The notes beneath the pieces are model-generated. The model was not told the DNA's origin and ran no database searches. It was given only the letters and a program-made list of their open reading frames with translations. The translations under genes were made by a program, and so were the position numbers. DNA of 64,000 bases. Source: Candidatus Latescibacterota bacterium (lineage in GTDB: Bacteria; Latescibacterota; UBA2968; UBA8231). The DNA is taken from NCBI GenBank assembly GCA_965219385.1, contig CBDCNM010000002.1:1544936-1608935 (forward strand), read 5' to 3'. Shown piece by piece: positions 1-16,060 of this stretch. The stretch's first letter is position 1; each line of letters begins with the position of its first letter.

Positions 1-1063
1 TAAATCGATCAATAGCAACGCGATCCTGCCACCGTGGTTCCACATTCTTCACCAACTTTTCCTCAATCCATACCCGGCTTGCCCACAAACCTTGCGGATC
101 TTTGGCTTCTTGTTCATGGACAGGGCCGAATATTTCACTCACTGCGTCCTCAGACCAGCCAATGGTGGTTGCGATCAGAGAAGCGCGATGCCGGAATGCA
201 CCGGCAAAGGATGTGCCGGGGACGACAGGCTCTCCAGCGGAGTGCAGATGAACCATGTCTGGAGCTTCTGGATCAGAAGGTGAACTACGGATTAACAGGG
301 ATGTACGCAGGATGAAATCCGCTTCAAGGCGAAAGTATTGTCGTTGATCAGATGGCAATGGATGTGGCGTCGAATTACTCGCGGGACGAGACCAGACCGA
401 GCCACGTAGCCACGCCATGACATCCTCTGGATCGTTCATCTGCAAATCGCGTATCTCCCAGGACGCTACCTTGCCGCGACCATAGCCCCGGCGGGTTCGT
501 GCGCCCAGTCGGATATCGCCTGTTTTGAACCCATGTAAGAGAGCTAAGAACAACTTCCCTAATTCATTATTATCGTCTCCGTCTCCCTTACGAATAATGC
601 ACTCCAGATCCAACTTAAATTCAGTCCCGCGTTCGACAACTTCCACGTCGAATTTTGCCTTTGCAGCGGCAGAACCCGATTGGGTGTCCACACGCACGCC
701 ATCGCGGATTGATGTCCATGCTTGCTCGCTGGCACAGGCAGCATCGGCAACGATTAAGGCACTCATGGTATCCTTTTCATCCGCTCCGCCGAAAAGCCGT
801 TTGAGCACCTGGCCCTCATCCCCCTCTTGGTATTCCGCCCAGGGCAAACTCTGCCGGGCCAGAAAACTCCGCGCCGCTCCAGCGATGGATGCACCCGGAA
901 TAAAGGGCTGTCCATCCGCATCCTTCAGAAGGCACATATCCGCTATACCTGTTTCGTCTCCCCCAAAGTGCGCCACACTGTCCAGCTCCCACTTACCCCG
1001 AGCATACAAACGGCGCACAATGGCATCCTTAGCTTCAGATGTTTCTGTCTTCGTATTTGCCAT
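1..1063 (-). CDS. cas7: Type III-D RAMP, tandem Cas7-Cas7 (Csm3-like) fusion; partial, runs off the window start
   Basis: Read by hand on the minus strand from ATG at 1063 (RBS AAGGA): MANTKTETSEAKDAIVRRLYARGKWELDSVAHFGGDETGIADMCLLKDADGQPFIPGASIAGAARS, G-loop RLGARTRRGYGR, then a second RAMP unit EPVVPGTSFAGAFRHRA...RVAIDRF. Not in the ORF track because it has no stop in the window. Confidence 0.88.
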   Translation of the reverse strand, partial: MANTKTETSEAKDAIVRRLYARGKWELDSVAHFGGDETGIADMCLLKDADGQPFIPGASIAGAARSFLARQSLPWAEYQEGDEGQVLKRLFGGADEKDTMSALIVADAACASEQAWTSIRDGVRVDTQSGSAAAKAKFDVEVVERGTEFKLDLECIIRKGDGDDNNELGKLFLALLHGFKTGDIRLGARTRRGYGRGKVASWEIRDLQMNDPEDVMAWLRGSVWSRPASNSTPHPLPSDQRQYFRLEADFILRTSLLIRSSPSDPEAPDMVHLHSAGEPVVPGTSFAGAFRHRASLIATTIGWSEDAVSEIFGPVHEQEAKDPQGLWASRVWIEEKLVKNVEPRWQDRVAIDRF

Positions 1064-1074
1064 GCTATTAGTCC

Positions 1075-1717
1075 TTATTTATCCCTTGACTTACGGCGCA
1101 GTGCTGTAAGTAGATGATCGAGAAATACTGTACACATCTTCGCGCTGTCATCCGAGACCAGTTTGTCAATCATGGTTTGGCGCATATCGGCGTAGCGACC
1201 TTCGACAAGCTCTTCAACGCGACTTTCAATCAATTGCCGAGTTAAGGACTCTGGTTCAGTCCATGCCTTTTTGAACAAATTGCACAGTGTCATTTGGCGC
1301 GACAGTCCGGGGATGTCGGCGTTTATCCGACAGTTCATCAATCCTTCCTCTGCCGGCTTACGTAAGTTATTTAAGCTCTCAACAGGCGCATCTTGTTGGA
1401 GAAACAGACGTAGCCGGCCGAGAAGGGCATTGCTTGGAACGTTCTGCGTCCGCTCAGCGCAGGTCATGGCACGCTGTTGCATCTCAGCCAAGCAACGCGA
1501 TCGTACAACGCCATACAGCAGGTCTTGGACACTCTGTGGTATCTTCGAGTCTGGCGCGCTGGGTATATTTTTCTCATCCAGTTGGATTTCTTCCCACAAC
1601 TGAAGATTGCCCTGTCGATTGACTGCAATGCGGCCATACCCCTCTTCCTTGCGTAACCCTAGGCCATCGTGCTCCAATTGCAAGAGATGCTTCTGATCGA
1701 GAGCTTTATCAGCCTTA
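1075..1717 (-). pseudogene. csx10: 3' part of cas7-cas5-cas11 (csx10-like) fusion gene, downstream of the IS: Cas5 G-loop plus helical Cas11-like domain
   Basis: ORF 1075..1683 contains GLGLRKEEGYGRI (RAMP G-rich loop) followed by a helical region with PSNALLGRLR. It rejoins the 5' part in frame when the IS and one TTA are removed. Confidence 0.85.
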
Positions 1718-2622
1718 GAGTCTCTAACAAAACCTTGGAATCGCGTATAGGCTTCATTATATTCTTATCCTCTTCGGTATTGCTTCTACCGTCTTGATAT
1801 GGAGGTGTTTTTGATGGCCAAGCCGTTACTCGACGATGGGTTATGGGCCTTGATTGAACCGGTTTTGCCCCCCGTAACCGTTGGCCCCCAAGGGGGGCGG
1901 CCTCGGCTGGATAACCGTAGGGTGCTGACCGGCATTCTCTTTGTGCTCAAGACGGGTATCCCTTGGGAGTATTTGCCTCAAGAGATGGGGTGCGGTTCGG
2001 GGATGACCTGTTGGCGTCGCCTGCACGCTTGGCAACAAGCCGGGGTCTGGAAAAGAGTCCATCATATCCTGTTGAACCGACTGAGGGCCGCCGACCGGAT
2101 TGATTGGTCTCGTGCGGTGGTCGATAGTGCCTCGGTGCGGGCGGTTGGGGGGGGGCGCACACCGGTCCCAATCCGACGGACCGCGGCAAACCCGGTAGCA
2201 AACACCATGTAATCACCGATGCCCAAGGGGTGCCGTTGGCGGCGGGGGTGACGGGGGCCCATCGGCATGATGTGACGCAGCTGTTGCCGTTGGTGGATCG
2301 CATACCCCCGGTGGCCGGTCGGGTCGGCCGCCCGCGTCGTCGGCCGGATCGGGTGCAAGGGGATCGGGCCTATGATTCGCAAGCCCATCGGCGCGCCTTG
2401 CGTAAGCGGGGCATCGGCTCGGTGTTGGCTCGGCGAGGGCAAGCCCACGGCAGCGGCTTGGGCGTCTATCGGTGGGTGGTGGAACGAACGTTGGCATGGT
2501 TGCACCAATTCCGTCGGCTTCGAGTCCGCTGGGAGCGACGAGGTGATCTCCATGAAGCCTTTCTCGACATTGGATGTATTCTCATCTGTTGGAAGTACCT
2601 CAAAGAGTTTTGTTAGGGCCTC
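1718..2622 (+). mobile_element. IS5-family insertion sequence (two-ORF, IS427/IS1031-like), 905 bp, with 3-bp TTA target duplication
   Basis: Terminal inverted repeats GAGTCTCTAACAAAAC (1718-1733) and GTTTTGTTAGGGCCTC (2607-2622), 14/16 match. TTA at 1715-1717 and 2623-2625. Transposase ORFs lie inside. Confidence 0.93.
1799..2616 (+). CDS. tnp: IS5-family transposase in two overlapping frames (orfA/orfB), joined by a -1 shift at a G9 run (2147-2155)
   Basis: orfA has WALIEPVLP...GGRPR...GILFVLKTGIPWEYLP...TCWRRL...WQQAGVW and VVDSASVRA. The -1 frame continues GPNPTDRGKPGSKHHVITDAQGVPL...GDRAYDS...RWVVERTLAWLHQFRRLRVRWER (DDE). Confidence 0.9.
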
Positions 2623-4373
2623 TTAAACACAAAAACACTGCCGGCGGCGATGGCGGGCCATTGCTGCCGCGGTAGGCGTAGGTGGGCATTATACCCGCCG
2701 ATCACTTCCGTGCGGGTATAACTGCACCAAAGTGTCGGTTCCGTGGTATCCAGACCCAGGGCCTTGGCCAGCTCACGCTTGGGAAAACGCGCCTCCGGGT
2801 GGCCGTGGTCGTTGACGGTCAACAACGGGGATAGGGTGGTAATAATCAAACGCACGCCAGGATTAGGGTTATTAGGTGCCTGCTGCTCAACGAATCCGTC
2901 CCACTCGACAAGCCCGCTCAATTCCTTCGGCGCATCATCAACCCATTCAAATTCCGCCTCGCCGTACTGCGCACTACGCGACCGTCCGATCCTTATCGAT
3001 TGTCCCCCTCGTAACCACGTTTTCAGATTCTTCAGATCGTCCGCTGAACCTAGGACAGCCCCTTGAAACGACTGTCCGGCTTGGATGGCTTCATACATAA
3101 AAAACGCACCGCCATCTTTGACATCTGCGCCAAGAGCACGACCTTTGCGTCGGTCGGCGGCGCGGGCGTGGTGGTAGTTCAGCTCCGTCTTGACGGCCTG
3201 CGTCTTCAAACTCTCTAGGCCGATCTTGGCGTAGCGGCGATCGAGTCGCTGCGTGGGTTCCTCCCCCGGCAACTGTTCGACGAAATCCACCAGTCGTTCG
3301 TCGTCCTTGAACTTGCGTATGGAGTGAGGAATGGGGATCATGCGTTGCGGTGGTTCATCGAACTCCTCGGGATCGTCCGCCTCCGGGTAGGCCGTCAGAA
3401 ATCGCAAGCCCCCATCGAGAAAGGCGTGACGAAACGCCTCGTCTTCCGGGGTGTGATCCGGTTGGCCCAGGTAGTGCCAGTAGTGCCAGGAGGCAGCTCC
3501 CCATACATTGCTCCCAGGCACCTCCTGCCGGGTCATAACGGTATTCGGGTCGCCATCTGCCACCGGGATAACCGCTGGCGCTGTCAACTTGAGCCGATAG
3601 CGCAACACATGGGTGGGCGTTCCGCGATTCGAGCGGGGTGAGCCAATCGCCTGCCCTTTTGACGTTTGGGATGGTTGGATGCGGTTGTTCACGGTTATTG
3701 AAGGAAGCGTATCGTCGCTCAGGGCCTGTTCGGTCAGGTCTCGACATTGCCCGTTCTCATCGCGTGCAAGCAAACGACAACAGACCTTTCCGAGACCGCG
3801 GGTGCGTGCCGATCCCATGTGTTGCAGGGCGGCGGCCCCCAGAGATAGCGCATTGAGCAACGCATTGTCGGGAGGCTCAAAGAAACGCACTCGCGCCCGA
3901 AATACCAAACCTGTCTTCAGGGTACGGGTGAGACGGAGCGTATCCTTTTTTGCTGCACCGGTATGGCGGTCAATGGCGGTTTGGGCACGCACAGTGGCAA
4001 AGTGTTGCACGACATCGTCAGGATGAAGTTTCTGAATCTTAGGATGTTGCAAGTAGTTCAGCCATTTTCTTAGAGACGACGCCCCTTGCAACTCTGCATT
4101 TGCAACATACAGGCAAGCATCCCCGGCACCGGGTTTCTGTCCTGACTCGCCGAAAATCTGCTTTGCCGGTATTGGTACCTCACTGCACGACCTCCACGCA
4201 TCGGCAACATCGCGATAGGCTTCGCGCCACAGCCCTTTGAGTCGCCTGCCGGGGAGAATGGGTAGCCCCAAGTCATCAAAGGCCACATCTCGGTCAACTA
4301 CGCCCACACGCCCCTCACCGGCGGCAGAGGTTAGCGGCGATTGCAGTGTGATTTGTAAGACATACTCAGTCAT
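2623..4373 (-). pseudogene. csx10: 5' part of cas7-cas5-cas11 (csx10-like) fusion gene, interrupted by IS5
   Basis: ATG 4373 with AAGGAG RBS. Cas7 motifs GLPILPGRRLKGLWRE and MGSARTRGLG. Cas5-like segment with IGRSRSAQYG and GGYNAHLRLPR...AIAAGSVFVF. The frame ends inside the IS inverted repeat. Confidence 0.88.
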
Positions 4374-4383
4374 TTTTATCTCC

Positions 4384-5979
4384 TTACCCTGCTTTCTCGC
4401 CATCTGTTGCTGGTTTCACTTCTAAATAGAAATCGAGTGCTTCAAGCGGGTCAAAATACGGCGTAGTGCGATCAGGAGAGTCCCCGCCTGTCCAACCTGT
4501 GTTACTTACCGACGACGATGGCAACTTTACGTCACGCCATTGTGCGCCTTCAATGAAGCGTTGGGTCGATGCAGGTCCCTGTGTTATAGCCTGCAAGAGA
4601 CCTTTGGCACGACTGCGGGGCCATCGCGGTGATTGAAATTCTTTCAAAATTGCGACAAAATCGTCCCATCTTTCCGGCACTTGATACGGACGCTGATGCA
4701 GCATTTGTCCTCCTAGGCTGCGATACTGTGCGGCTCTCAGGGCTGAAATGGACCGGGTGGCACCCTCCGGAATGATCTGGAAGTCCAGCCAACTACCGGT
4801 TGGATCAATCGCCTTCCGGCGGTGCGATTTAGCCTCTCCGCAAAGTTCCTCAGCAAAATGATAGGCGCGGGCAAACGGAAACTTCGTAGGTACGATGGCT
4901 ACTCCAGCACAGGCATCAACGGGTCTGTCCTCTCCGCTAACCTTGATCTTACCCTTAGAAAACTCCCGCAGATAGTAGGCCGCCAGATCGAGACCCAGGC
5001 GACCATCGCATACAAATGTCAAATCGTCGCCGCCGTACACGATGGGACGAAGGGGAAATATTTTTTCATCTTCCAGCGACAAATCATCTTTTAGCCTCGG
5101 CAAAGCTTCTCGTAGATATTGCAAAGTCTCCTTTAGGACATTCTGGGACAGAAGCGACACAGAGGCAGAAAACGCCCGGATGTGATGGAGGAAGTCCGCA
5201 TCTTCTCCTGCACTGTTTCCTACATCGATGAGATGTTTGCCCATTCCATTGCCATCAGCATGCACCACGGCAATATGCGACTCTCCCGTACGGCCACCCA
5301 ATTTGTCGAGCTCGATGGCAAAGTGTGGTCCTTCTTTCAAAACCGGTCCAAATTGGTTAAAAATGGCGTTTTGGGCAGCACCAACTTGATTCCGCTTGCT
5401 CTCCGCAGACTGTGATATCCACTCCTCATTGTTTTCCTCGCTGGGTTCGCTTGCAGGGAGTCCAGTCGTAGTACAGGTGCGAACAACGGGTAAACCGTAC
5501 AAGGTGGCTCCAAAGGGCAGTGCCTCCTCGCAACTGGCGAGATCATCCAATGCGCCACGATATGCTTCAGCCAGCGAGTTCTCAACATCTGCATATCCAA
5601 CGGCCACCCGAAGTCCAGGTGCATTTTCGAGTAGCTTGCGGCTCCATGCTTTGACAGCATCTTTAGCAATCTCTTGGCTTTTGCAGAGCAGCGCGGCATT
5701 ACCCCCACCTATATAGATGAGGTTGACATCTTTCGTCGTGTCCACTGGTTTTTCAGATGGAGACATTGAGGGATTCGCCTTGTACGCAGCCCATGCATTA
5801 GTATCAACGGTGCGGCCAGCCTGCTTTATGGCCTCAAGCAAGCCCTCGTCGAGCCAGTATTTTGCCAGATGAGACGCGCCGATATTCTCTTTCAGGCGAT
5901 TGCTCTGAAAGATGTATCGCTGAAGACTCGCAGTGCCTAAGACTACGATGGACTGACCAGTATAAAGAGAAGTTGACAT
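4384..5979 (-). CDS. cas10: Cas10 of type III-D, compact (531 aa), no HD domain, palm2 GGDD intact
   Basis: QRYIFQSNRLKENIGAS N-terminus, YIGGGNAALL palm1, HADGNGMG and VYGGDDLTF cyclase motifs, KFPFARAYHFAEELC; sits among RAMP genes. Confidence 0.92.
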   Translation of the reverse strand: MSTSLYTGQSIVVLGTASLQRYIFQSNRLKENIGASHLAKYWLDEGLLEAIKQAGRTVDTNAWAAYKANPSMSPSEKPVDTTKDVNLIYIGGGNAALLCKSQEIAKDAVKAWSRKLLENAPGLRVAVGYADVENSLAEAYRGALDDLASCEEALPFGATLYGLPVVRTCTTTGLPASEPSEENNEEWISQSAESKRNQVGAAQNAIFNQFGPVLKEGPHFAIELDKLGGRTGESHIAVVHADGNGMGKHLIDVGNSAGEDADFLHHIRAFSASVSLLSQNVLKETLQYLREALPRLKDDLSLEDEKIFPLRPIVYGGDDLTFVCDGRLGLDLAAYYLREFSKGKIKVSGEDRPVDACAGVAIVPTKFPFARAYHFAEELCGEAKSHRRKAIDPTGSWLDFQIIPEGATRSISALRAAQYRSLGGQMLHQRPYQVPERWDDFVAILKEFQSPRWPRSRAKGLLQAITQGPASTQRFIEGAQWRDVKLPSSSVSNTGWTGGDSPDRTTPYFDPLEALDFYLEVKPATDGEKAG

Positions 5980-5997
5980 TAGTATATCCTCACTCGC

Positions 5998-7083
5998 TCA
6001 GATCCAATGCAGGTCATTGCATAGGTATCGATAAAACTCATTGGGTAGCCGACGCCACTTATTCTTTCCCCAGATTTGCAGAGGCTCGCTCGCACTACCC
6101 ATTTCATCCTTCAGTTCGTCTTCGATGAGTTTAGCGGTATTTGGGTGAGCACTACACAGCACTATGGCCCGCGCTTCATCACCACCGAGTTGTCGCGCCC
6201 GTAGAATAGCCTCCATGCCTTTTTGTTTGCTCCGGTCGTGACCAGAATCAACAGTGCATGAAACAACTACAATCTGATACCCCAGCACCGCGACTACATC
6301 GAGTTCAAAAGGCTTGACATTTGGGTCTGTTGTTCCAGCTCGTCGGACGTACACGCTGTGAAAAATTTCATAGTTGTTTCGATCCGAATTGCGCTCGGAA
6401 ATTTTCTTCAGAGCTTCCTCAAAAGCGGCATACGCACCGTACTCGAGAAGATCGGGATCAATAGTTACGCTGCGAAACGCATTCATGCCCTCGTCGCATT
6501 GCTCTTGGCTAGGTGCTCTAGGGGCCGGACATTCTTCCGTCCTATGGCCTCCAATCGATTTACTAAAGTATCGATATTCAAATGGTCCGATCGTAAAGCC
6601 GTCGAGTTCGGCGATTCGACTAAGACAAGGATCAATCCCCCAACGAGTATCCTTTACAAGAGGACCGCTCCGACTTACGATAGTCGGGCCTGATGCGCCA
6701 CGTGGATCAAGATAAGAGGTTTGTAGGCGGACGTTCTGGCTATCTCGTAGTTGGGCTTCGATAGCAGAAACCGTTTCAACACCCATCACCTTGGTGCCGC
6801 CGGTGTAGTGGACGTAAAGATCAGTGGTCTCGGCTGATAAATCTCTTAAGATATGCCTGATATCACCGCGTACAGTCTCGGGATTACCCGCCGACGTTTG
6901 AATGGGATCAAGGAGAGACGCACCTTGACAATACTTCTGTAGCCGGTCTTTTTCAGCCACCGTGCCCGCCGTATGCACAAGTCGAACATGAACAGGTTCG
7001 GGCAGTTTGTCTTTCAAATGATGCCACGCCACCCACACCGGCAATGGATTGGTTCCGACTGTGAGAATGAGTTGTGTTCCCAT
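5998..7083 (-). CDS. CARF-domain effector with C-terminal PD-(D/E)xK-like nuclease (Card1/Can2/DUF1887-like)
   Basis: CARF motifs LILTVGTNPLP and HYTGGTKVM. C-terminal LLEYGAY...FELDVVAVLGYQIVVVSCT...RARQLGGDEA, as in DUF1887/Card1-like REase domains. Lies directly upstream of cas10. Confidence 0.8.
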   Translation of the reverse strand: MGTQLILTVGTNPLPVWVAWHHLKDKLPEPVHVRLVHTAGTVAEKDRLQKYCQGASLLDPIQTSAGNPETVRGDIRHILRDLSAETTDLYVHYTGGTKVMGVETVSAIEAQLRDSQNVRLQTSYLDPRGASGPTIVSRSGPLVKDTRWGIDPCLSRIAELDGFTIGPFEYRYFSKSIGGHRTEECPAPRAPSQEQCDEGMNAFRSVTIDPDLLEYGAYAAFEEALKKISERNSDRNNYEIFHSVYVRRAGTTDPNVKPFELDVVAVLGYQIVVVSCTVDSGHDRSKQKGMEAILRARQLGGDEARAIVLCSAHPNTAKLIEDELKDEMGSASEPLQIWGKNKWRRLPNEFYRYLCNDLHWI

Positions 7084-7127
7084 GACTACCGTTTCCTCCG
7101 TATCAGTGAATAATGGACGGCGACGCT

Positions 7128-9701
7128 CTATGGCTCATAGGGTAACCCGTTCATGTCCGTAACCTCTGGAAGCGCAGCCTTCTTACCTTGCCCTTTCTCA
7201 TTATCGACAAACCACTTGAAATTCTCACCCTCTGGGTTCGGTTTGCGTTCCAGACGTGGATAATGAATGGGCGCGTCGTCTCCCGGGCCGCTTAGAACTT
7301 GTAGAAATCCACTGATAAAAGACAGCTTCTTAAAATGTTCTGATTCGATCTCTACGCGGTCTTCAGGATCGGTAAAGAGCTGAACGGATTTGAGATCGTC
7401 CAAGGATGTCAATCGACGGGATACGGATGTTTCAAGCTCTTCTCCACTCTTAGTGGTTTCGTCATTGACTGGAAGAGGCATATACGCGGCCACCATACTG
7501 GCCTTAAATTTCTGAATACAGTTGTTTCGTTGCCCTTCATCCAAAGTTCCCGGGGAGGATGCATCGAAAGCCGCATAGTAGTTTTTCCACTCTTCTCCGG
7601 TGCCAAGCGGCAGGCATCCATTTACACACTGCTCTTCATCAACCTCCATTCGTACGCTGCCAAAACCCAGTGGCTTGCCATAGCCTAGCCGGAAGTAATG
7701 GCCTTCGGGAAGCGATAGCAACCAAAGCAATGCGCCGATCTCTTCAGGTTGCAGATTTTGCACGTACAGGGATACCTTAAAAACGGTATTGGGCTTGATC
7801 CACCCTCGAATGCTGCGATTTTGAGGATCGGTTTGAGACTCTCCATCAGGACGGCGGTATTCCTGATAACGACCATTACTTTGTTGCTGTGTTCGGTCCT
7901 CAACTGACGGCTTCCAATAGTCTGGTGCTTGATCGGCTTCCAGCCCTTTGTGGTGCCAGTAGTGCTTACGACCTCGTAGGCCCTTGCCTTTACTATAGCC
8001 TGCTTGTTTCTTGTCAAGGCCATCTTCTTGCGGCCTGCCTTGATCATCCTTGGCTACATAAAAACGGCCCTGTGCGGGTTTCGGTTGTCCCAGGATAGCA
8101 AGGGGCAAGGACTTACCAGCAAAGTCCTCGATGATTTCTGGTCGTGCGCCATCCTCACAGACGACTCGCATGCGACCCTTGTAGCCTTGGTCGCTACCGG
8201 ATTTCTGAGGTACCCACCCGAATAGACGATCCGCGGGAGACAACTCACTTCTCTTATTCGCTGGCTTTAGTAAAGAATCGTTTAGTGAGGAATCGAGAAG
8301 GTCTTTGGGGCTGTTGTCATACAACTCACGGGAGATCATGACTGGGAAAATATCTTCAATATCCGTGATATTTCCCTGTGTATCGAATTTGCAGCGGGCA
8401 TATACCATATCTCCCGGTTGCAATTCCATTGCGTCATGTGCGTTTCCGCCCCAGCGGTCTCGGTGTTTACCATCCTGATATAGATGCGGAGACCAGGCCG
8501 TTTCACCAGGGTTATTGCCGGTTTTTTTCCAGGGCTTCACACCTCCTGGCCGCTTAAAGATATCGTTCTCTGAGTGTGCTTCCCGATAGTTTTTGATACG
8601 CCTGCGCCAAGACTCTTTGAGGTGGTCAGTCACTTCAAACGTATCTGATTTGGGATTAAAGAAAATTCGCTCATCGTGTTTGTTACCCATGTTTTGATTG
8701 GTGACCAAAACGCGCCCTTCGACGATTTTTCCTGTAGTCGATGGTTCTTTGGGATGCTTGCTCTTTGGCCAAACTCTGATTGCCTTCCAGAACCAATAGC
8801 CCCGCTGATGCTTAATAAGTTTGACTTCTGCCCAAACTTTGTCCCCAGTCTGAGGATCACACCCCCCTACACACTCCGAATTCAGATTTGGATTCTTGTT
8901 ATAGCGTGTCAGCATCGCAGCGTACATCGCGCCTTTTTCTTCAAATCCGTTTGGACCTTTAACTGTAGCTTGGCTAGTACCGATATACAAACGCGCCACC
9001 AAGTTCTCGGCTCCTTTGCCATTTTCGATAACCGCTGGAATGAGCTTCAGAGCTTCCCTAGTTTCCATGCGATAGGCCAACCGGTCATCGTTGCTAAAAC
9101 AACCATAGCGCGAGTTCGTCACCACTTCATAAGCGCTACGCAACACACCGCGCAGGGACGATTCCGCCAGACGGTTGAGAACATCATAAGTTTGGTGCTC
9201 AGTTGGCGAGCGTTCTTCGCCATCAGTTTTGGGCAATACCAAGGGTGTGACGGTGGTCAGCTTGATGGGCAAATGCCCTGTCCACAGGTCCGGCTTGAGC
9301 GACTCATGGCTGAGGCTGAGGCCATGTTTCAACGGATCAAAATCGCCTGCAAATCCGCCCACTTTTATTGCATCTTGACGCGGAGGAGAAGGGACGAAGG
9401 TATATGGATTGTAAAAGTAGTCGTGTGTTTCGGCGCTTGACGGACTGGACTCTACGGCTTCTTGCGCTGTGGAAGAAACCATGCGGTCCTGTAAACGGAC
9501 GTTCTTTGCCTCGTACCGGTCTTCGTGTCTCGGGGAGGGCCGTTTGTCGAAAACAACGACTGCTCCCTCGACCAGAGATTCTTCCTTACCCTTTAAAGCT
9601 TGACTACTGTTAATGTGAAAGAAGACATCTTCTCCAAGATCATCCACAATGAACCCGTAGCCTTTATCCTTGATCCACTTATTGATCTTGCCAGTTTCCA
9701 T
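7128..9701 (-). CDS. cas7: Type III-D Cas7 with large insertion (TIGR03986-like), fused to an N-terminal cold-shock domain
   Basis: Likely start ATG 9701 (GAAGGA RBS). CSD: GKINKWIKDKGYGFI...DVFFH. RAMP: FYNPYTFVP, ESSLRGVLRSAYEVVTNS, SPADRLFGWV, LRGRKHYWH, LGYGKPLGFGSV. Confidence 0.88.
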   Translation of the reverse strand: METGKINKWIKDKGYGFIVDDLGEDVFFHINSSQALKGKEESLVEGAVVVFDKRPSPRHEDRYEAKNVRLQDRMVSSTAQEAVESSPSSAETHDYFYNPYTFVPSPPRQDAIKVGGFAGDFDPLKHGLSLSHESLKPDLWTGHLPIKLTTVTPLVLPKTDGEERSPTEHQTYDVLNRLAESSLRGVLRSAYEVVTNSRYGCFSNDDRLAYRMETREALKLIPAVIENGKGAENLVARLYIGTSQATVKGPNGFEEKGAMYAAMLTRYNKNPNLNSECVGGCDPQTGDKVWAEVKLIKHQRGYWFWKAIRVWPKSKHPKEPSTTGKIVEGRVLVTNQNMGNKHDERIFFNPKSDTFEVTDHLKESWRRRIKNYREAHSENDIFKRPGGVKPWKKTGNNPGETAWSPHLYQDGKHRDRWGGNAHDAMELQPGDMVYARCKFDTQGNITDIEDIFPVMISRELYDNSPKDLLDSSLNDSLLKPANKRSELSPADRLFGWVPQKSGSDQGYKGRMRVVCEDGARPEIIEDFAGKSLPLAILGQPKPAQGRFYVAKDDQGRPQEDGLDKKQAGYSKGKGLRGRKHYWHHKGLEADQAPDYWKPSVEDRTQQQSNGRYQEYRRPDGESQTDPQNRSIRGWIKPNTVFKVSLYVQNLQPEEIGALLWLLSLPEGHYFRLGYGKPLGFGSVRMEVDEEQCVNGCLPLGTGEEWKNYYAAFDASSPGTLDEGQRNNCIQKFKASMVAAYMPLPVNDETTKSGEELETSVSRRLTSLDDLKSVQLFTDPEDRVEIESEHFKKLSFISGFLQVLSGPGDDAPIHYPRLERKPNPEGENFKWFVDNEKGQGKKAALPEVTDMNGLPYEP

Positions 9702-9838
9702 TTTATTTCCTTCCCTATTTTTCATTTCAAAAAGTTGGCCTACCAATCAGTATTTAAACAGGCAGGCACATCGGTTTCAGTCCTCTGGCGGGCCTGATGG
9801 GTGCAATCCTGGTGAGGATAGAGATTCAGGAGTGCCGG

Positions 9839-10189
9839 TCATTTACCAAACCACTCGGCGGCTTTTTCTTTGGCGTGGTTTTTAATCTCAGGCGTCACAT
9901 GGACCTCCACGATAGCGAGTGCAGCGGCCAACGCAGCCAGATCGTCGCTGAAGCCGACGACTGGGATCAGGTCGGGAATTGCATCGGCCGGCAGAATGAA
10001 GTATCCCAATACCCCGTAGATAACCGTCTTGGCCCAGGCCGGTGTATCAGGAGCCTGTACGGTGTAGTAGAGCGACAGGGCATGTTCGACGACTTCCCGA
10101 CCCGCGGTACGTGCGAAGTTGCGCAACTTACTCCAGAAGCTGTCCTGAGAATAATATTGCTCATACCCCTGATTGATTAGATTGTCCAT
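9839..10189 (-). CDS. YkvA/DUF1232-family small membrane protein
   Basis: FWSKLRNFARTAGREVVEHALSLYY...TPAWAKTVIYGVLGYFILPADAIPDLIPVVGFSDD matches the DUF1232 pattern. Confidence 0.85.
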   Translation of the reverse strand: MDNLINQGYEQYYSQDSFWSKLRNFARTAGREVVEHALSLYYTVQAPDTPAWAKTVIYGVLGYFILPADAIPDLIPVVGFSDDLAALAAALAIVEVHVTPEIKNHAKEKAAEWFGK

Positions 10190-10249
10190 GTTGTTCTTCC
10201 ATTTAATGTTTACTGCGGATTTACTGAAACCGTGTGATCACCTCTTGTA

Positions 10250-10266
10250 TGCAATCCGCGTGCCAA
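10250..10266 (-). promoter_or_regulatory. Sigma54 (RpoN) -24/-12 promoter for the ykvA-cas operon
   Basis: The minus strand reads TTGGCACGCGGATTGCA, matching YTGGCACGNNNNTTGCW with GG-N10-GC spacing, about 60 bp upstream of the ykvA start. Confidence 0.88.
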
Positions 10267-10305
10267 AGACAAAAAGATCTTCTAATTTTCTCAAAAACCA
10301 ATAAA

Positions 10306-10318
10306 AAACAACAGGTTG
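10306..10318. promoter_or_regulatory. Putative IHF binding site
   Basis: AAACAACAGGTTG versus consensus WATCAANNNNTTR (one mismatch), with an adjacent A-tract, located between the promoter and the enhancer repeats. Confidence 0.5.
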
Positions 10319-10365
10319 TGTGATATTTTTTTGACAAAGGAAATAGATGACAACATGCTCAGTCG

Positions 10366-10397
10366 TGCAATTTTGCAGGAATCTCTGCAAGGTTGCA
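10366..10397. promoter_or_regulatory. Two palindromic upstream activating sequences TGCAA-N2-TTGCA
   Basis: TGCAATTTTGCA (10366-10377) and TGCAAGGTTGCA (10386-10397), 20 bp apart, about 100-130 bp upstream of the -24 element. Confidence 0.72.
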
Positions 10398-10402
10398 GCC
10401 AT

Positions 10403-12091
10403 TCACTCACGCCCCTTATGACTCTTTTTTAATGGCAAGCCATGTTTTTCAGCTTTTCTAGTCAGCGTTGTAGAATGGATACCCAGCATCTCTGCGGCAG
10501 GTCCTCTTTCGCCCTGCGTTTGCGACAACGCTTCCTCAATCTTCTGCTTTTCAAACTGTGCCACTTGTTCTTCGAGCGTACCACTACCCGTGCCTAAATC
10601 TGTTGATTCAAAAATATGCCTGGCTAAGTCTTCCTTGTGTACTCGAAATGCACTCCGTGGCGCGTCAATGACGATGCGCTGAACTTCATGTTCAAGCTCG
10701 CGCACATTGCCCGGCCAGGTATAGCGACACATGGCTTCTATAGCTTGGGCATCAAAGCCCACAACCTTGCGTTCGTGTTTTTCATTAAACTGTTCACAAA
10801 ACAGGTCGATTAACTCCGGTATATCTTCGCGTCGTTCTCGCAACGGTGGCATGTAAATGGTCAAAACATCGAGGCGATACAACAGGTCTCCTCGGAAAAC
10901 CCTTTCTTGAACCATGGCCTTCAAGTCGCGATTGGTCGCCGCAACAATGCGTACATCAACCTCTTTCTCCTGTTCATCACTGCCAACCGCACGCACTTTC
11001 TTTTCTTGTAATACGCGCAGCAGCTTCTTCTGCCCCTCATGTGATAATTCTCCTATTTCATCTAAAAAGAGGGTGCCGCCGTCGGCTGTGCGAAAAGCAC
11101 CCTCACGCGGCTCGTCTTGTCCGGTATAAGCACCTTTAGCTGCACCAAATAGTTCTACATCCAAAAGCTCACTTGGGAATGCACTACAGTTAATCGGTAT
11201 GAATGGTCGATCTTTTCTCGTGCTCTGCTCATGCAGTGCTTTAACTGCGCGTTCTTTACCCGTTCCCGTTTCGCCCAAGATCAACACGGTTGCACCATCT
11301 GCATCAGCGGCTTGCCGAATCTGTTCTTTGGCTTTCCGCATTGCAAAACTATTTCCGATCAATCCGCCGGCATTACCCGATGTTTCTCTCAGTCGCTTGT
11401 TTTCTGCTCTTAGACGTGGAACACTCCTCACCTCTTCTTGTGTTCTCTGTAGAATTCGGTCGTAGCTTTCATCGCCAAATACGGATATATCTCTTACCGA
11501 TACATAGGGTAACTCTGCCAACTCAATACGCACATCAGCAGTAGAAATGTGTTGCCCGCTTGATGTGGGGATTTGCGCTTCACAAACTGGTGGAAAGAAA
11601 AAATCGTGATTCATTTCAATCTCTGGCGGAGTAACCAGCACATGATACAGGCGATCTTGGGGGCGACCGAAAAACTGAACAGAAGCCCCGAGCAAGTATC
11701 CCATTGACTTTCGCCCGCCCGCGAGAGAACAATGTAAGGCGCTGTTAGCATCTCGTGTCCAATTCTCAATCCGTCGGAAAATTTGATCCCGGGCCAAACG
11801 ATTCTCTTCCGAGGTGCGGATATCGTCTAAAAAATTACCCTCGGCATCTTCAAATACAAGGATATGCTCGGGGCCGAAAAGGACCGTATTGGGATCGATA
11901 TCGCAGTCCACCAACATCTTTTCAAAGCGCCCTTCGTCCAAAAGGCGTTCCTGACAGGTTGCCTTGCCCATGGTTGTCGTCATCACAAATACTTCATCGA
12001 TGGGCACATGGCGCTGGACACGCAATGCCCAGAAGGTCTCTGTCATAACTTGTGGTGTGTTGCCGATCACAGCGATTAGTTTGTGCTTCAT
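10403..12091 (-). CDS. CARF (Cas_NE0113/Cami1-like) sensor fused to sigma54-dependent AAA+ activator and Fis-type HTH
   Basis: N-terminus IAVIGNTPQVMTETFWAL...LDDIRTSEEN...SLAGGRKSMGY...FGRPQDRLYHVLV. Walker A GETGTGKE, ELFG..GAYTGQ loop, Walker B LFLDEIGE, FRGDLLYRL, WPGNVRELE, C-terminal HTH AAEMLGIHSTTL. Confidence 0.9.
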   Translation of the reverse strand: MKHKLIAVIGNTPQVMTETFWALRVQRHVPIDEVFVMTTTMGKATCQERLLDEGRFEKMLVDCDIDPNTVLFGPEHILVFEDAEGNFLDDIRTSEENRLARDQIFRRIENWTRDANSALHCSLAGGRKSMGYLLGASVQFFGRPQDRLYHVLVTPPEIEMNHDFFFPPVCEAQIPTSSGQHISTADVRIELAELPYVSVRDISVFGDESYDRILQRTQEEVRSVPRLRAENKRLRETSGNAGGLIGNSFAMRKAKEQIRQAADADGATVLILGETGTGKERAVKALHEQSTRKDRPFIPINCSAFPSELLDVELFGAAKGAYTGQDEPREGAFRTADGGTLFLDEIGELSHEGQKKLLRVLQEKKVRAVGSDEQEKEVDVRIVAATNRDLKAMVQERVFRGDLLYRLDVLTIYMPPLRERREDIPELIDLFCEQFNEKHERKVVGFDAQAIEAMCRYTWPGNVRELEHEVQRIVIDAPRSAFRVHKEDLARHIFESTDLGTGSGTLEEQVAQFEKQKIEEALSQTQGERGPAAEMLGIHSTTLTRKAEKHGLPLKKSHKGRE

Positions 12092-12209
12092 GCCTTTATC
12101 TTGCTCCTTTAAAAAATCTGTGTGAATCCTCGGGCCGCGTAGCGCCGCACTGCTTCGGCCATACGGCTGGGGGCGCTCGACACGGTCCGACTGCCCACTA
12201 CGACGGCGT

Positions 12210-12626
12210 TCAGCGACGGGTGCGCGGGCCGTTCAGCATGGTCCCAATCAGAGTATAGCGAACACCCAACTGATAGACAACGAGCAGAATGACGACAACC
12301 ACGGTGCATACCAGTGCGAGTTTCAAGTGAACGTTGAGCGGCCAGCTCAGGACCAGCATCTGCCCGCCGATCACCAGCGGCAAGTGCCACAGATACAGCC
12401 AGTAGGACGCATCCGACATATAACGTACCCAGAAACGCTCCTTGGCGGCGACCCAGCGGAAGAGTCCCATCAATCCGAAGCACTTTGCAGGTTCGGTGGT
12501 GTATCCCCATTTGTCGTGCACCGGCCAGAATTCGACAGTGGGCAGAAGAAAGAGGCCGGCGTGCAGCACGATTCCCAGCAACATGGCGAAGGCGCGCAGC
12601 GCGTCCAGGTCGTGGAATCTGGTCAT
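12210..12626 (-). pseudogene. Acyltransferase-3 (OpgC/NolL-like) remnant with large in-frame internal deletion
   Basis: The N-terminal motif RFHDLDALRAFAMLLGIVLHA joins almost directly to the C-terminal motif RYMSDASYWLYLWHLP...VRYTLIGTMLNG. Only 138 aa. Confidence 0.7.
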
Positions 12627-12645
12627 AGCTCCTTTGAAAATCAGC

Positions 12646-13602
12646 TCACATTAAAGCGTATTGTCCCATCCCAAAGCTGGTCCACTTGCCGACGTGCATG
12701 GGCACGCCGAGTACCAGCAGCGGGTGGAATAGCTCAAGGTCGCCTTCAAAAACCACATCCCCTGTAAAACCGCTCACCGTCATGCGCCGGTTCTTGCGGT
12801 TTGAAAACCGTTCCCATGTGCGCCAGGTCAAATTGTGATACGTAGTTTGAACGCCTTCTGCCGGCGCGATATAGTCGCTGTAATTCAAGTCCGGCGGGTC
12901 AGCAGGCGCAGACAGGTCTGCGTGAAATGTAGCCAGCGCCGAATACCGCCGCAACAGCCCGCGCACCAGCACGGGAAAATCCAATCCCCGTTGCAACACC
13001 CGGTCTGCTTTGAGTTGCGTGGGCGTGACAAATGAAAGGCGAACCTGTGAACCCACCTGATCGCGCATCAAGTCCATCGCATTCAGGTGCGGCACATCCT
13101 GCTGCAAGGTCTCGCTCGCCCCGTCGTAAATCAACTGCCACGACCCATCGGCGTGCAGGGCTTCGCCCGAAATCAAATCGCACTTGCCACGTCCACGCCC
13201 GACACCTGTTTCACCCATGCGCTGAAACGTGTAAACGAAATAGGACGTATAATTCAGCGCCTTGCCAATGAGTATCAAACCAATCGCAAACCCATCGCCG
13301 GGCGCGTAATCGGTTTTGGTCTCCAGCGGTGGTTCAATCAAGTATGGATGGGGTGCGTCCTTATAGCCGCGGAAGATGCCCTGCGCACCGGTCACGGGCG
13401 TATCAAATATGTATGGATACACGCACTGCTCCCGGATCAAACACCGCTCGCAATCCCTGTGTTGCACAATGCAAACCGCGTGCTTAAACGCAACCCCAAA
13501 AGCCCCTCGCAATGTGGAGCCTTTATAGGGTGGCAACCGCATGTGGCCGCGCGCTTTGAAGTGCAGGCGCAGGTGCGCGAACTTCAGGTCGAATTTGAAC
13601 AT
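12646..13602 (-). CDS. cas6: CRISPR pre-crRNA processing endoribonuclease Cas6
   Basis: ATG 13602 with GGAGG RBS. LPPYKGSTLRGAFG, cysteine cluster C..HRDCERCLIREQCVYPYIF, APHPYLIEPP, and terminal G-loop HVGKWTSFGMGQY. Confidence 0.9.
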   Translation of the reverse strand: MFKFDLKFAHLRLHFKARGHMRLPPYKGSTLRGAFGVAFKHAVCIVQHRDCERCLIREQCVYPYIFDTPVTGAQGIFRGYKDAPHPYLIEPPLETKTDYAPGDGFAIGLILIGKALNYTSYFVYTFQRMGETGVGRGRGKCDLISGEALHADGSWQLIYDGASETLQQDVPHLNAMDLMRDQVGSQVRLSFVTPTQLKADRVLQRGLDFPVLVRGLLRRYSALATFHADLSAPADPPDLNYSDYIAPAEGVQTTYHNLTWRTWERFSNRKNRRMTVSGFTGDVVFEGDLELFHPLLVLGVPMHVGKWTSFGMGQYALM

Positions 13603-13663
13603 CGACACCTCCTTTGCACAAGGTAGTGATCCTTTCAGTTCCAGATCGGATTTCACTGTCACA

Positions 13664-14857
13664 TCAATTTCTCCAGGTGGCGATAAATCCGTCCACGTCC
13701 AGCCCCTCGGGCATTTCCTCAAAGAAGTAGGGCATAGGCCCGGACTGAAAACCCGGCACGTACTGTTCGGTAGCAGCCTGCAGCCTTTTGTCCAGCGGCG
13801 CGAAGCGCTGCCACACCACCTCCAGTTCCTGCTTTGAAAAGCGCGGGCCGATCTGCTTTTCCTGGGTAAAGTCGCCGCCGTAGCCGGAGCGGTCGGGATG
13901 GCTGCCAAAGAGGATCTTGTAGACCAGCTTGGACAGGAGGATGACGCACACAATGCGCCCCACCTCGCCGGGGTGGAAGTGTTCGATCCCGGCGCGAAAG
14001 GTGTCCTCGTCCCGCTCGATGAGGGCCCGGTACACCTCTTCGATCCGGTCGCACTCGGCCGCATAGAGCGCCTGGTGGCGCCCGAAGATCTCCTGGAACT
14101 GTGGTTTCAGGTGCCGCTCGAAACCCTCCGTGTAGTACATCCCGGGGACATAGGAGTAATTCCCTCCCCCGAAGGCCCGGTAACCCAGGTGGATGGTGCG
14201 CCGGGGCTTGCTGCTGTAGTTGCTGCCCCAGTGCAGGATGGTATTGGTGTAGACCGCCCCATCGCCGGCCTTGAGTTCCACCGGCATGCTGGCGGGCAGA
14301 GGCACGGAGTTGTCTTCCTGCAACTGGCGGTTTTCCTCGTCGGTGTTGGAGCGGCGATGGCTGCCGGGCACCACCCAGAGCACATCGTCGTCGTAGAGCG
14401 GGACATTCCACTGCAGGTACGCCGGATGATTGTTGAGCAGGTCCAGCTGCAAGCCGTTGAGGGGCGCCTGGTCGATGGGGTGGATGTCGCGGTGCCAGCG
14501 GGCCGGGCCGTGGTCGCGCACCGGACTGCACATCATCATGTAGCGATGGACCCCCACATCCGGCGCCTGCATCAGCTGGCGGCACACCCCCAGGGTGGTC
14601 TCGCCCAGGCAGAATTCCACGGTGTCGGCCGTGTCCGCGTCGATCAGTCCCTCGAAGGACACCAGGCGCGGCTGGCCGTCGACTTCCCAGCGCCCGCCGG
14701 GCGGATCCTCCGGCTGGCGCTCCTGCGCCCAGATCTGGCGCTGGCGGTCCACCAGTTTCTCGTAACTGACACGCAGCTTCTCCAAGCGATCAGGCGCGAT
14801 GGCCTGAGGCACGATGACGTAGCCGTTGTCCAGCAGTTGTCGTGGATCGACTTTCAT
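13664..14857 (-). CDS. Phytanoyl-CoA dioxygenase (PhyH)-family Fe(II)/2OG oxygenase
   Basis: NGYVIV, WHRD, VVPGSH, ELKAGD...ILHWG, RRTIH. Confidence 0.85.
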   Translation of the reverse strand: MKVDPRQLLDNGYVIVPQAIAPDRLEKLRVSYEKLVDRQRQIWAQERQPEDPPGGRWEVDGQPRLVSFEGLIDADTADTVEFCLGETTLGVCRQLMQAPDVGVHRYMMMCSPVRDHGPARWHRDIHPIDQAPLNGLQLDLLNNHPAYLQWNVPLYDDDVLWVVPGSHRRSNTDEENRQLQEDNSVPLPASMPVELKAGDGAVYTNTILHWGSNYSSKPRRTIHLGYRAFGGGNYSYVPGMYYTEGFERHLKPQFQEIFGRHQALYAAECDRIEEVYRALIERDEDTFRAGIEHFHPGEVGRIVCVILLSKLVYKILFGSHPDRSGYGGDFTQEKQIGPRFSKQELEVVWQRFAPLDKRLQAATEQYVPGFQSGPMPYFFEEMPEGLDVDGFIATWRN

Positions 14858-15129
14858 GTTTTCTCCTCTCTATTCGCGGGGTGGAGCGGATCGGCCAGCG
14901 ACACCGCCCCCGGGCTTTCGACCAGGTACATGGCTTCGGGTAGACCAGTATAGACAATGCAAAGTAGATCATCAAGGCATCGCCCTCAGACAGTTGTGAA
15001 ACCGCTTCTATGGCACCGCGCTGTTTTTGCTGTATATGTTTTTGGTGTATATTTGGAACGTGCTTTTGCAACTGGTTCAGCAATGATAATCACAATCCTG
15101 TGCTACTACTCCAAAAGGGGGATTGCACC

Positions 15130-15897: not shown

Positions 15898-16060
15898 TGC
15901 CGGCGCGCCCCATCAAAGGCAATGTGCCACCAACCCGTGGAGGGCCAGCCGGTACAGGAACGCGCAATACCTGGCGGCACCGCTGTTCCGAGTCCTGGAC
16001 CTCCAAACCGCACCGCTCTTTCCCCTCGCCCTTCGAGGGCTTTGACGAGGAGGCCGGCTC

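Follow-up and report, generated by a model that had tools for sequence, protein, structure and literature searches.

A CARF5-sigma-54 activator gene, a conserved sigma-54 promoter and a type III CRISPR operon in a Latescibacterota genome: a candidate inducible circuit

We describe a gene for a 562-amino acid (aa) protein, located in a 64,000-nucleotide (nt) stretch of a Candidatus Latescibacterota genome (assembly GCA_965219385.1, contig CBDCNM010000002.1, forward-strand positions 1,544,936 to 1,608,935; this whole stretch is called the window), in which a CARF domain is joined to a sigma-54 AAA+ ATPase domain and a helix-turn-helix (HTH). Just behind the gene lies a sigma-54 promoter that points into a type III CRISPR operon, with all genes of the finding on the minus strand, and comparison with related loci strongly supports the link between regulator, promoter and CRISPR genes. 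We propose that the protein is an enhancer-binding protein with a CRISPR-type CARF sensor, through which cyclic oligoadenylate (cOA) would induce sigma-54 transcription of the type III operon, a proposal towards which we lean with modest confidence. Activation by cOA, probably cyclic tetra-adenylate (cA4), and the positive feedback that would result are what we infer from these relationships.

Results

Domain architecture of the activator

An initial annotation of this DNA had read the gene as a fusion of CARF, AAA+ enhancer-binding and HTH domains, and profile searches bore this out. The N-terminus matched PF09623 (Cas_NE0113) over residues 12-201 (1e-33, 117 bits against a cut-off of 23) and TIGR02584 (5e-49, 167 bits, above the cut-off of 80.65); the centre matched PF00158, the sigma-54 AAA+ family, over residues 244-412 (1e-62), with AAA_lid_14 as the lid (4.6e-21); and the C-terminus carried a Fis-type HTH, HTH_8, at residues 510-548 (1.9e-9). 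The motor contained a Walker A motif (GETGTGKE), a Walker B motif (LFLDE), an L1 loop (GAYTGQ) and the sequence FRGDLLYRL, and Walker A, Walker B, the arginine finger and the L1 loop were retained in all 13 aligned homologues. An AAA+ domain with Walker A and B motifs and arginine fingers is what characterizes a bacterial enhancer-binding protein, and the activator has it.

The homologues fell into two AAA+ subfamilies, one with GPTGSGKE and a GAFTGA-like L1 loop (loci L011-L015 and L048) and the other, which includes the protein described here, with GETGTGKE and GAYTGQ (L004-L010). Within the latter (n = 7) the loop read GAYTGQ in five proteins, GAYSGQ in one and GTYTGQ in one; in the former it read GAFTGA, NAFTGA, GAFTDA, NAFTNA or GAFTNA. 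The threonine of this sigma-54-contacting loop was conserved in 12 of the 13 homologues. Both subfamilies use identical palindromes (see below) and carry closely related CARF domains, with 60-72% identity between subfamilies in the CARF domain and just 47-48% over the whole protein. At L011 an activator of the GAFTGA-like subfamily stands with an effector operon whose identity to the one in the window is 75-86%; this pairing, taken with the divergence of the subfamilies, suggests that the modules have been reshuffled. The host genome encodes one RpoN and about 18 full-length enhancer-binding proteins, together with two genes of the HU/IHF family, both under the himA cut-off; rpoN was also present in all five other carrier genomes tested.

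The promoter region

Between the activator gene and the operon the initial annotation had placed two palindromic enhancer-like sites, a site like that of integration host factor (IHF) and a consensus sigma-54 promoter, and all of these were recovered (Table 1), the palindromes also by an inverted-repeat search. The distal palindrome starts 5 nt past the activator stop codon. Both palindromes are of the type TGCA-N4-TGCA, with their centres 20 bp apart and six bases between them, and, counted from the T of TGGCAC, they lie at -132 (distal) and about -112 (proximal); an A/T-rich stretch precedes the sigma-54 box, and the IHF-like site lies between palindromes and box. The IHF-like site has one mismatch to the Escherichia coli IHF consensus, on which our IHF-like calls rest. 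A Fis-type HTH in the protein and conserved sites some 100-150 bp upstream of the promoter form the arrangement expected of an enhancer-binding protein, with the palindromes as putative binding sites, and the rpoN gene and the -24 GG/-12 GC promoter needed for sigma-54 activation are both present.

The promoter, TGGCAC-N5-TTGCA, was the sole match with at most one mismatch in the window. The 5.81-Mb genome contains 30 TGGCAC-N5-TTGC sites, and only this one had TG[CT]A-N4-TGCA within 260 nt upstream, in two copies; on its 4.5-Mb contig the palindrome pair was the sole such pair spaced 15-25 nt. A terminator-like hairpin was sought between the activator stop codon and the DUF1232 gene, and none was found. 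A sigma-70-like hexamer pair at 10353-10325 matched at 9 of 12 positions, no better than expected from shuffled sequence, and was discarded.

Conservation in related loci

A search with the CARF domain, limited to proteins whose overall length was similar, produced 361 matches, and among the 120 listed at least 104 carried both PF09623 and PF00158. Scanning species-representative genomes yielded 12 fusion loci in Latescibacterota, with CARF identities of 59-85%, and four loci with stand-alone NE0113 proteins in other phyla. Within the phylum, CARF matches occurred in 19 of 168 genomes and 14 of them were fusions, from two families; the same phylum-wide search returned a 324-aa open reading frame (ORF) on a short contig (G094). 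Scoring of 1.84 billion representatives turned up 10 or more clusters (50% identity) that span both CARF and AAA+, and seven distant fusion clusters (P0141, P0148, P0155, P0161, P0201, P0247 and P0254; 35-39% identity) were confirmed by Pfam. A metagenome scan with the CARF domain gave three loci at 37% identity, apparently of the stand-alone form.

Together with the locus in the window there were thus 13 fusion loci, 12 of them with downstream sequence (L008 ends inside the activator gene). A survey of homologues for cas10 and for -24/-12 boxes had been suggested in the initial annotation as a test, and its outcome favoured the link: palindromes, IHF-like site and -24/-12 promoter accompany the activator in all 12 loci, and an operon with a GGDD-bearing cas10 follows in 10 of the 12. 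In the 11 related loci with downstream sequence TGGCAC-N5-TTGC lay 137-280 nt past the activator stop codon. Five loci had a second promoter copy 1.3-1.7 kb onward, one copy standing before cas6 and one before the DUF1232 gene, which brought the total to 17 promoters. When these were aligned, TTTGGCAC and TTGC were invariant; the proximal palindrome stood at the aligned position (about -112) in all 17, in 15 as TG[CT]A-N4-TGCA and in two as the variant GGCAAAAATGCC, and the distal palindrome was found by the same pattern in 10. An IHF-like match (at most one mismatch to the IHF consensus) started 43-53 nt upstream of TGGCAC in every one of the 17, and two of these matches were perfect. As a control, the four stand-alone NE0113 loci were searched to 500 nt downstream, and none had such a promoter. 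Covariation of the HTH with the palindromes in L006 and L007 was considered and dropped, as canonical palindromes occur at the second promoter of the same loci.

The genes behind the cassette were typed by tblastn with the proteins from the window and by NCBIfam on 30 of 81 called ORFs. By tblastn, L011 and L014 have a III-D-like set 70-86% identical to that in the window; by NCBIfam, L007 and L010 are III-A (Csm1-Csm5 and a CARF protein), L006 is III-B (Cmr1, Cmr2, Cmr3, a CARF protein and Cmr4) and L012 is III-D (Cas10, Csx7 and Csx10). L009 (III-B), L013 and L015 (both III-D) were assigned from ORF layout and a GGDD-bearing ORF. All nine related Cas10 proteins had GGDD, as did the one in the window. 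The cas6 gene adjoins the activator gene in all 13 loci, and DUF1232 leads the effector unit in nine of the 10 loci linked to cas10, with 73-84% identity and regardless of subtype (III-A in L010, III-B in L006 and L009, III-D in the remainder). This co-occurrence across III-A, III-B and III-D indicates that the cassette is linked to type III systems independently of subtype. Two loci lack a cas10 operon in the available sequence. That of L005 stops after cas6; at L004 (11945-20100) the cassette faces two FGE-sulfatase/PvdO-like genes, an ankyrin gene (PDC-M72A-like), a Ser/Thr kinase gene (mad6/PD-T4-6-like) and a DUF4407 gene, with no cas10 within 9 kb. On these comparisons cas6, activator, enhancer-IHF-sigma-54 promoter and DUF1232 behave as a portable regulatory module.

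The CARF domain

PADLOC profile CARF5--CARF matched residues 1-229 of the activator at 4e-69, and the CARF5 profiles matched were those named CARF, CARF_TM and CARF_ADA only. The PADLOC CARF profiles, which served us as a proxy for the 2020 census of CARF proteins, presumably derive from it. In a search by sequence alone against PDB sequences the domain gave a marginal match only (7z55, E 0.21), so that a fold search was needed. An AlphaFold (AF2) model of the domain had a predicted local distance difference test (pLDDT) score of 87.6, and its best matches in Foldseek were CARF proteins that bind cA4 or cyclic hexa-adenylate (cA6), namely Crn1 Sis0455 (9e-7), Sso2081, Cad1, Can2, Csm6 and Card1; 54 PDB chains matched at E of 1e-3 or less, and CARF proteins led among the matches listed. 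Two motifs, GxTPQ...TE following strand 1 and AGGRK following strand 4, did not vary among 16 sequences, both fusion and stand-alone, with identities as low as 36%; the invariant positions are G10, P13, Q14, E18 and A124-K128.

When the domain was modelled as a homodimer the score was 0.82, against 0.00 for the best control; runs agreed in at least 59% of contacts and the partner pLDDT was at least 84. The mark applied had been calibrated on 30 solved homomers, of which 20 attained it, and on 23 monomers, of which one did. The predicted interface includes residues 123-129 and 150, which puts the ligand motifs at the interface. Because CARF dimers have already been solved, this pass may reflect likeness to them and is not proof. 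Profile matches above the curated cut-offs and a Rossmann-like fold with conserved motifs place the domain in the NE0113/CARF5 branch of the CARF superfamily and, by these features, it is a canonical cOA-type CARF and not one of the divergent RtcR type.

Cad1, of the CARF5 clade, is a hexamer built from CARF dimers that binds and cleaves cA4 (PMC12669630); three CARF dimers on a hexameric ring would also be what an active enhancer-binding protein needs. The activator has the CARF clade (by PADLOC) and the fold in common with Cad1 and differs from it in that a sigma-54 AAA+ ATPase with HTH_8 replaces the adenosine deaminase. By analogy with Cad1 and Crn1 its CARF domain may bind, and possibly cleave, cOA. 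Can2 is activated by cA4 (preprint 10.1101/2023.09.18.558242), and the presence of its homologue in the operon suggests cA4 as messenger; with the CARF5 type and the fold matches, cA4 appears the most likely one. The domain may also cleave cA4, thereby timing the response.

The CRISPR operon and its insertion sequence

Behind the promoter the initial annotation had listed ykvA, cas7, a CARF nuclease gene, cas10, csx10 and a further cas7. The DUF1232 (YkvA) gene, the CARF nuclease, a Cas10 with GGDD and the Csx10-like and Csx7-like genes stand (Table 1); the first cas7 had to be replaced by a fusion of a cold-shock domain with a multi-RAMP protein, 857-872 aa in length, in which PF00313 covers residues 18-84, TIGR03986 matches above its cut-off (7.9e-87) and Cas7-11e matches in part. 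The CARF nuclease matched PDB 8q3y in phmmer (E 1.6e-21) over both its CARF (residues 5-131) and nuclease (258-347) parts, and 8Q3Y comes from the Can2 preprint (10.1101/2023.09.18.558242).

The gene order proposed for the operon held; its extent and integrity had to be revised, as the operon runs past the left end of the window and its csx10-like gene is split by an insertion sequence (IS). Left of the window, on the same strand, lie genes for Csx19, a CARF-HEPN Csm6, a TPR-PrimPol protein and Cas1, and a 26-repeat array (L002:12022-13934). The reverse complement of the array's repeat ends in ATTGAAAC, which indicates that the array is oriented with the operon. Given a Cas10 with GGDD, RAMP subunits, cas6 and an array, the locus is, by gene content, complete as a type III-D-like system and includes adaptation genes.

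Table 1. Coordinates, in the window, of the activator, its promoter region and the neighbouring genes
Feature	Position	Strand	Basis
csx7-like RAMP gene, 487 aa, extends past the left end of the window	1..1063	-	RAMPs 8.8e-27, TIGR02581 5.9e-25
csx10-like gene, 3' part, 202 aa	1075..1683	-	matches C-terminal end of TIGR02674
908-bp IS splitting the csx10-like gene	1714..2621		25 genomic copies
csx10-like gene, 5' part, 596 aa	2613..4403	-	RAMP 5.5e-17, TIGR02674 1.9e-10
Short Cas10, 531 aa, GGDD (VYGGDDL), no HD domain	4384..5979	-	PF22335 palm2 8.9e-9
Can2-like CARF + DUF1887 nuclease (P0003), 361 aa	5998..7083	-	phmmer
Fusion of cold-shock domain and TIGR03986 multi-RAMP protein, about 857 aa with ATG 9701 as start	7128..9701	-	profile searches
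Small DUF1232 protein (YkvA family) of membrane type, heading the sigma-54 unit	9839..10189	-	PF06803 1.2e-12
Putative sigma-54 promoter TGGCACGCGGATTGCA, -24 GG/-12 GC	10250..10265	-	exact consensus match
IHF-like site, AAACAACAGGTTG on the + strand	10306..10318	+	one mismatch to WATCAANNNNTTR (E. coli consensus)
Proximal enhancer-like palindrome CTGCAAaaTTGCAC	10365..10378	-	sequence reading, inverted-repeat search
Distal enhancer-like palindrome CTGCAAccTTGCAG	10385..10398	-	sequence reading, inverted-repeat search
CARF (NE0113/CARF5)-sigma-54 AAA+-HTH_8 activator (P0001), 562 aa	10403..12091	-	profile searches
138-aa ORF between cas6 and the activator gene	12210..12626	-	ORF list
cas6, 318 aa from ATG 13602	12646..13602	-	PF10040 CRISPR_Cas6 7.6e-18

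The IS is IS4/5-like; the genome has 25 copies, all but one with identities of 99.7% or above, and another copy carries a DUF4096 ORF of the IS4/5 family. Not every effector gene is intact, as the csx10-like gene is divided into parts of 596 and 202 aa. Removal of the IS in silico joined the halves in one 810-aa ORF, and in L011 the gene is a single uninterrupted ORF. In a DNA sequencing run (X2) depth was about 20-fold higher at the IS, and a contig joined position 1713 to 2622, an empty site, at the depth of the flanks; uninterrupted alleles therefore exist in a population. The regulatory cassette of this genome is intact despite the IS. An RNA-labelled run (X1) yielded seven short contig pieces on positions 1-16000 (the IS, 196 nt of the DUF1232 gene, 191 nt of cas6 and fragments at 14.2-15.5 kb), from which start site, strand or silence cannot be inferred; with 0.06 of sampled words found and DNA carry-over possible, it was set aside as evidence of expression.

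Discussion

To our knowledge RtcR is the only studied CARF-sigma-54 activator; it controls the rtcBA RNA-repair operon. The protein described here has the same CARF-sigma-54 AAA+-HTH architecture, with a CARF domain that would likewise gate a sigma-54 promoter beside its own gene. Its CARF domain belongs to another clade, however: NF038308 covers residues 228-501 only (283 bits against a cut-off of 650), and in the PADLOC RtcR profiles the alignment begins no earlier than profile position 152 and takes in residues 227-552. Because the RtcR models match the AAA+/HTH part only, the activator is not an RtcR; no RtcR-domain Pfam family was present among the 14 Pfam hits either. The target differs too, a type III cas operon instead of rtcBA (rtcB and rtcA are not adjacent, and the genes behind the promoter are DUF1232 and cas genes), as does the predicted ligand, cOA instead of tRNA fragments or RtcAB.

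For RtcR-like CARF-ATPase-HTH proteins beside restriction-modification systems and CoCoNuT superoperons, a role as sigma-54 co-activators has been predicted and feedback proposed (PMC4012209, PMC11090510). They resemble the present case in sitting at the 5' end of a defence operon and in the proposed feedback through products of defence nucleases; they differ in having an RtcR-type CARF and restriction-type targets, where we find CARF5/NE0113 and cas10, and both cases are predictions only. Csa3, a CARF protein with a winged HTH, binds cA4 and regulates type I-A and Cmr loci in Sulfolobales (PMC8844856, PMC8699464, PMC9704534). It, too, ties a cOA-sensing CARF to DNA binding and controls CRISPR genes, including feedback on type III interference; it is, however, a winged-helix factor acting on ordinary archaeal promoters, whereas we propose an ATP-driven enhancer-binding protein acting on a bacterial sigma-54 promoter. 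With its AAA+ domain and HTH_8 the activator falls outside the Csa3 family, whose members combine CARF and winged HTH and have no ATPase. The complete novelty implied by the initial annotation was thus too strong a claim, since feedback through RtcR-like proteins (PMC4012209, PMC11090510) and regulation of cas genes by cOA-binding Csa3 (PMC8844856, PMC8699464) are in print. Our literature search found nothing that joins RpoN or sigma-54 with Cas10 or with the NE0113/CARF5 family, though the search did not extend to the 2020 CARF census (Makarova et al.), which may bear on novelty; sigma, NtrC and RtcR go unmentioned in the 2025 classification paper. The CARF5-sigma-54 architecture is well supported by the sequence comparisons and apparently unreported; CARF transcription factors as such were already known.

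The nearest relatives of the sensor itself are the stand-alone Cas_NE0113/TIGR02584 proteins (about 380 aa), which also occur in type III loci and whose CARF domains are 35-45% identical to that of the activator, with identical invariant motifs. In one genome (G004) such a protein is encoded between cas6 and an HD-cas10, a slot that matches that of the fusion. The stand-alone forms differ in having neither AAA+ nor HTH_8, and in the lack of a sigma-54 promoter within 500 nt behind the four loci searched. NE0113 has been predicted to be an effector-less CARF family that regulates transcription (Makarova 2014, PMC4012209).

The circuit drawn in the initial annotation is borne out in its parts: activator, sites, promoter and GGDD cas10 co-occur, rpoN is present and the CARF domain is of the cOA type. 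How these parts would act together we set out conditionally. The strict co-occurrence of activator and palindromes suggests that the activator binds, through HTH_8, the tandem palindromes (TGCA-N4-TGCA) that closely follow its gene; a bend at the conserved IHF-like site would bring it to the sigma-54 holoenzyme at TGGCAC-N5-TTGCA, and ATP hydrolysis would open the promoter, as is the property of the family. Transcription would enter the genes for DUF1232, the multi-RAMP protein, the Can2-like nuclease, Cas10, Csx10, Csx7, Csx19 and Csm6, and possibly PrimPol, Cas1 and the array. The proposed switch is target-RNA recognition, upon which the GGDD Cas10 would make cOA, to judge from CARF type, fold and Can2 neighbour most likely cA4; cOA bound to the CARF dimer would then release or assemble the AAA+ ring, so that effector complex and cOA-activated nucleases would be amplified upon infection. 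As the activator gene lies upstream of the promoter, outside the sigma-54 unit, such a loop would amplify the effector only and not the sensor. Basal sensing could come from read-through out of a constitutively expressed cas6-activator unit, a source made feasible by the lack of a terminator-like hairpin after the activator gene, or from a second Cas10 module in a I-G/III hybrid locus.

Several points weigh against this proposal. Sigma-54 promoters are normally very tight, and in eight loci cas6 also stands behind one, so that first sensing would need leakage, read-through or another source of cOA. Activators of the subfamily present in the window carry GAYTGQ where GAFTGA is expected. The 13 loci are kin, from two families of one phylum, and not independent samples, and at one of them, L004, the cassette to judge from gene content drives non-CRISPR genes. 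The folds nearest to that predicted for the CARF domain are those of ring nucleases, and the domain could mainly destroy cOA. Finally, the csx10-like gene is split by the IS, and the effector complex, and by polarity the genes behind, may be defective. Whether the circuit in this genome is a relic, its effector operon inactivated and its regulator and promoter left intact, is a question compatible with any mechanism in the intact relatives. A 908-bp element present in 25 genomic copies divides an otherwise 810-aa ORF that is uninterrupted in L011; set against this are the empty-site contig at flank depth in run X2, the open state of every other gene of the locus and the array of 26 repeats, and we regard a relic as a distinct though doubtful possibility.

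The remaining alternatives concern what the CARF domain does. With the same wiring, its ligand could be something other than the cOA of Cas10, such as RNA ends with a 2',3'-cyclic phosphate, linear A2>P (from Csm6, Can2 or ring nucleases) or a protein partner. RtcR is reported to answer to tRNA fragments or to binding of RtcAB (PMC7790460, PMC9650030), the RtcR-like regulators of CoCoNuT systems are predicted to sense cyclic-phosphate RNA (PMC11090510), and TaqCad1 is activated by A2>P, its own cleavage product (PMC12669630). The CARF domain of the activator is not of the RtcR type, however, the RtcR profiles stopping short of it; it retains the basic AGGRK motif, mostly absent from RtcR-type domains (PMC4012209), and its fold resembles cA4-binding CARFs, and we think a different ligand unlikely. 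Still less probable, in our judgement, is that the domain is chiefly a ring nuclease or vestigial and that the promoter, though sigma-54-dependent, answers to other physiology or to the level of activator instead of cOA. The Crn1 ring nucleases at the top of the fold matches, the ring nuclease label that NCBIfam gives to TIGR02584 and the non-CRISPR cargo at L004 would all fit such a case; yet the ligand-site motifs are invariant in 16 sequences down to 36% identity, which speaks for a binding function that is under selection and physically coupled to the AAA+ domain, and the fusion persists in 10 or more clusters at 50% identity. Whether the response is positive or negative is not readable from sequence, and cOA might turn the activator off, the apo protein keeping the operon on until a strong signal shuts it and limits self-damage by Can2 and Csm6. 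Such negative feedback would remove the problem of first sensing, and brakes in the form of ring nucleases are common in type III systems (PMC8284326). Nevertheless, cOA switches on the known CARF effectors, and an always-active activator would make the costly layout of sigma-54 promoter, enhancers and IHF site pointless. The sensor domains of enhancer-binding proteins, moreover, usually keep the AAA+ domain inactive until the signal arrives, as in NtrC1, DctD, XylR and RtcR. Negative feedback therefore seems to us quite improbable, and induction by cOA remains the reading we prefer.

We know of almost no cOA outputs other than allosteric enzymes, archaeal Csa3 being the only studied transcriptional output. 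We suggest, tentatively and a shade short of believing it the probable case, that sigma-54 transcription is a distinct bacterial output class of type III cOA signalling, in which a CARF5 sensor, possibly self-timing as a ring nuclease, gates the ATP-driven motor and a mobile cassette stands before III-A, III-B and III-D systems and a non-CRISPR set. If induction by cOA is correct, effector complex, nucleases and the DUF1232 membrane protein would be produced in bulk only after target RNA has been seen, and these bacteria would keep a costly or self-toxic type III system near silent and induce it through its own second messenger in a switch-like, amplifying response; cargo of the L004 type (kinase, FGE-sulfatase-like and ankyrin proteins) would come under CRISPR-guided, sequence-specific control. 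That a single cassette accompanies three type III subtypes and, once, non-CRISPR cargo is relevant to the movement of regulatory modules among defence systems. For engineering, the cassette would offer a compact and orthogonal part that couples RNA-guided detection to tight transcriptional activation, and, since E. coli has both sigma-54 and IHF, a reporter test is directly possible there.

Other features of the locus

The start of cas6 was set by the ribosome binding site and the N-termini of homologues, the listed 472-aa ORF beginning too early. The 138-aa ORF downstream of it is missing from related loci, where cas6 abuts the activator gene; its ends seem to resemble both termini of an acyltransferase-3 membrane protein, of which it may be a collapsed remnant. 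DUF1232 may itself be a transcriptionally induced membrane effector. At L011 (12437-13066) a gene of the EcsC family (PADLOC PDC-S29, 2e-87), not found in the locus described here, lies between the DUF1232 and multi-RAMP genes. The fusion of cold-shock domain and multi-RAMP protein is kept at 75-86% identity in L011 and L014, and an RNA-binding cold-shock domain on a type III backbone subunit is unusual.

Directly upstream of cas1 the TPR protein with an archaeo-eukaryotic primase domain (L002:15691-17667, minus strand) matches the PADLOC PrimPol 'adaptation polymerase' at 2e-79, and no cas2 was recognised in the interval of 685 nt that separates cas1 from the array. Two mini-arrays of two repeats each (L002:4658-4796 and 7708-7840) have a repeat one base off that of the 26-repeat array (AAGCC in place of AATCC), and IS, ankyrin and WD40 genes lie between them. 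The genome has a second CRISPR locus (G000:C2:2613871-2628591; L028/L029), in which type I-G genes for Cas3g, Csx17, Csb1 and Csb2 precede a minimal type III module, consisting of a 489-aa Cas10 with GGDD, Csm2, Csm3, Csm4 and a CARF protein (TIGR02710), and a Cas4-Cas1 fusion.

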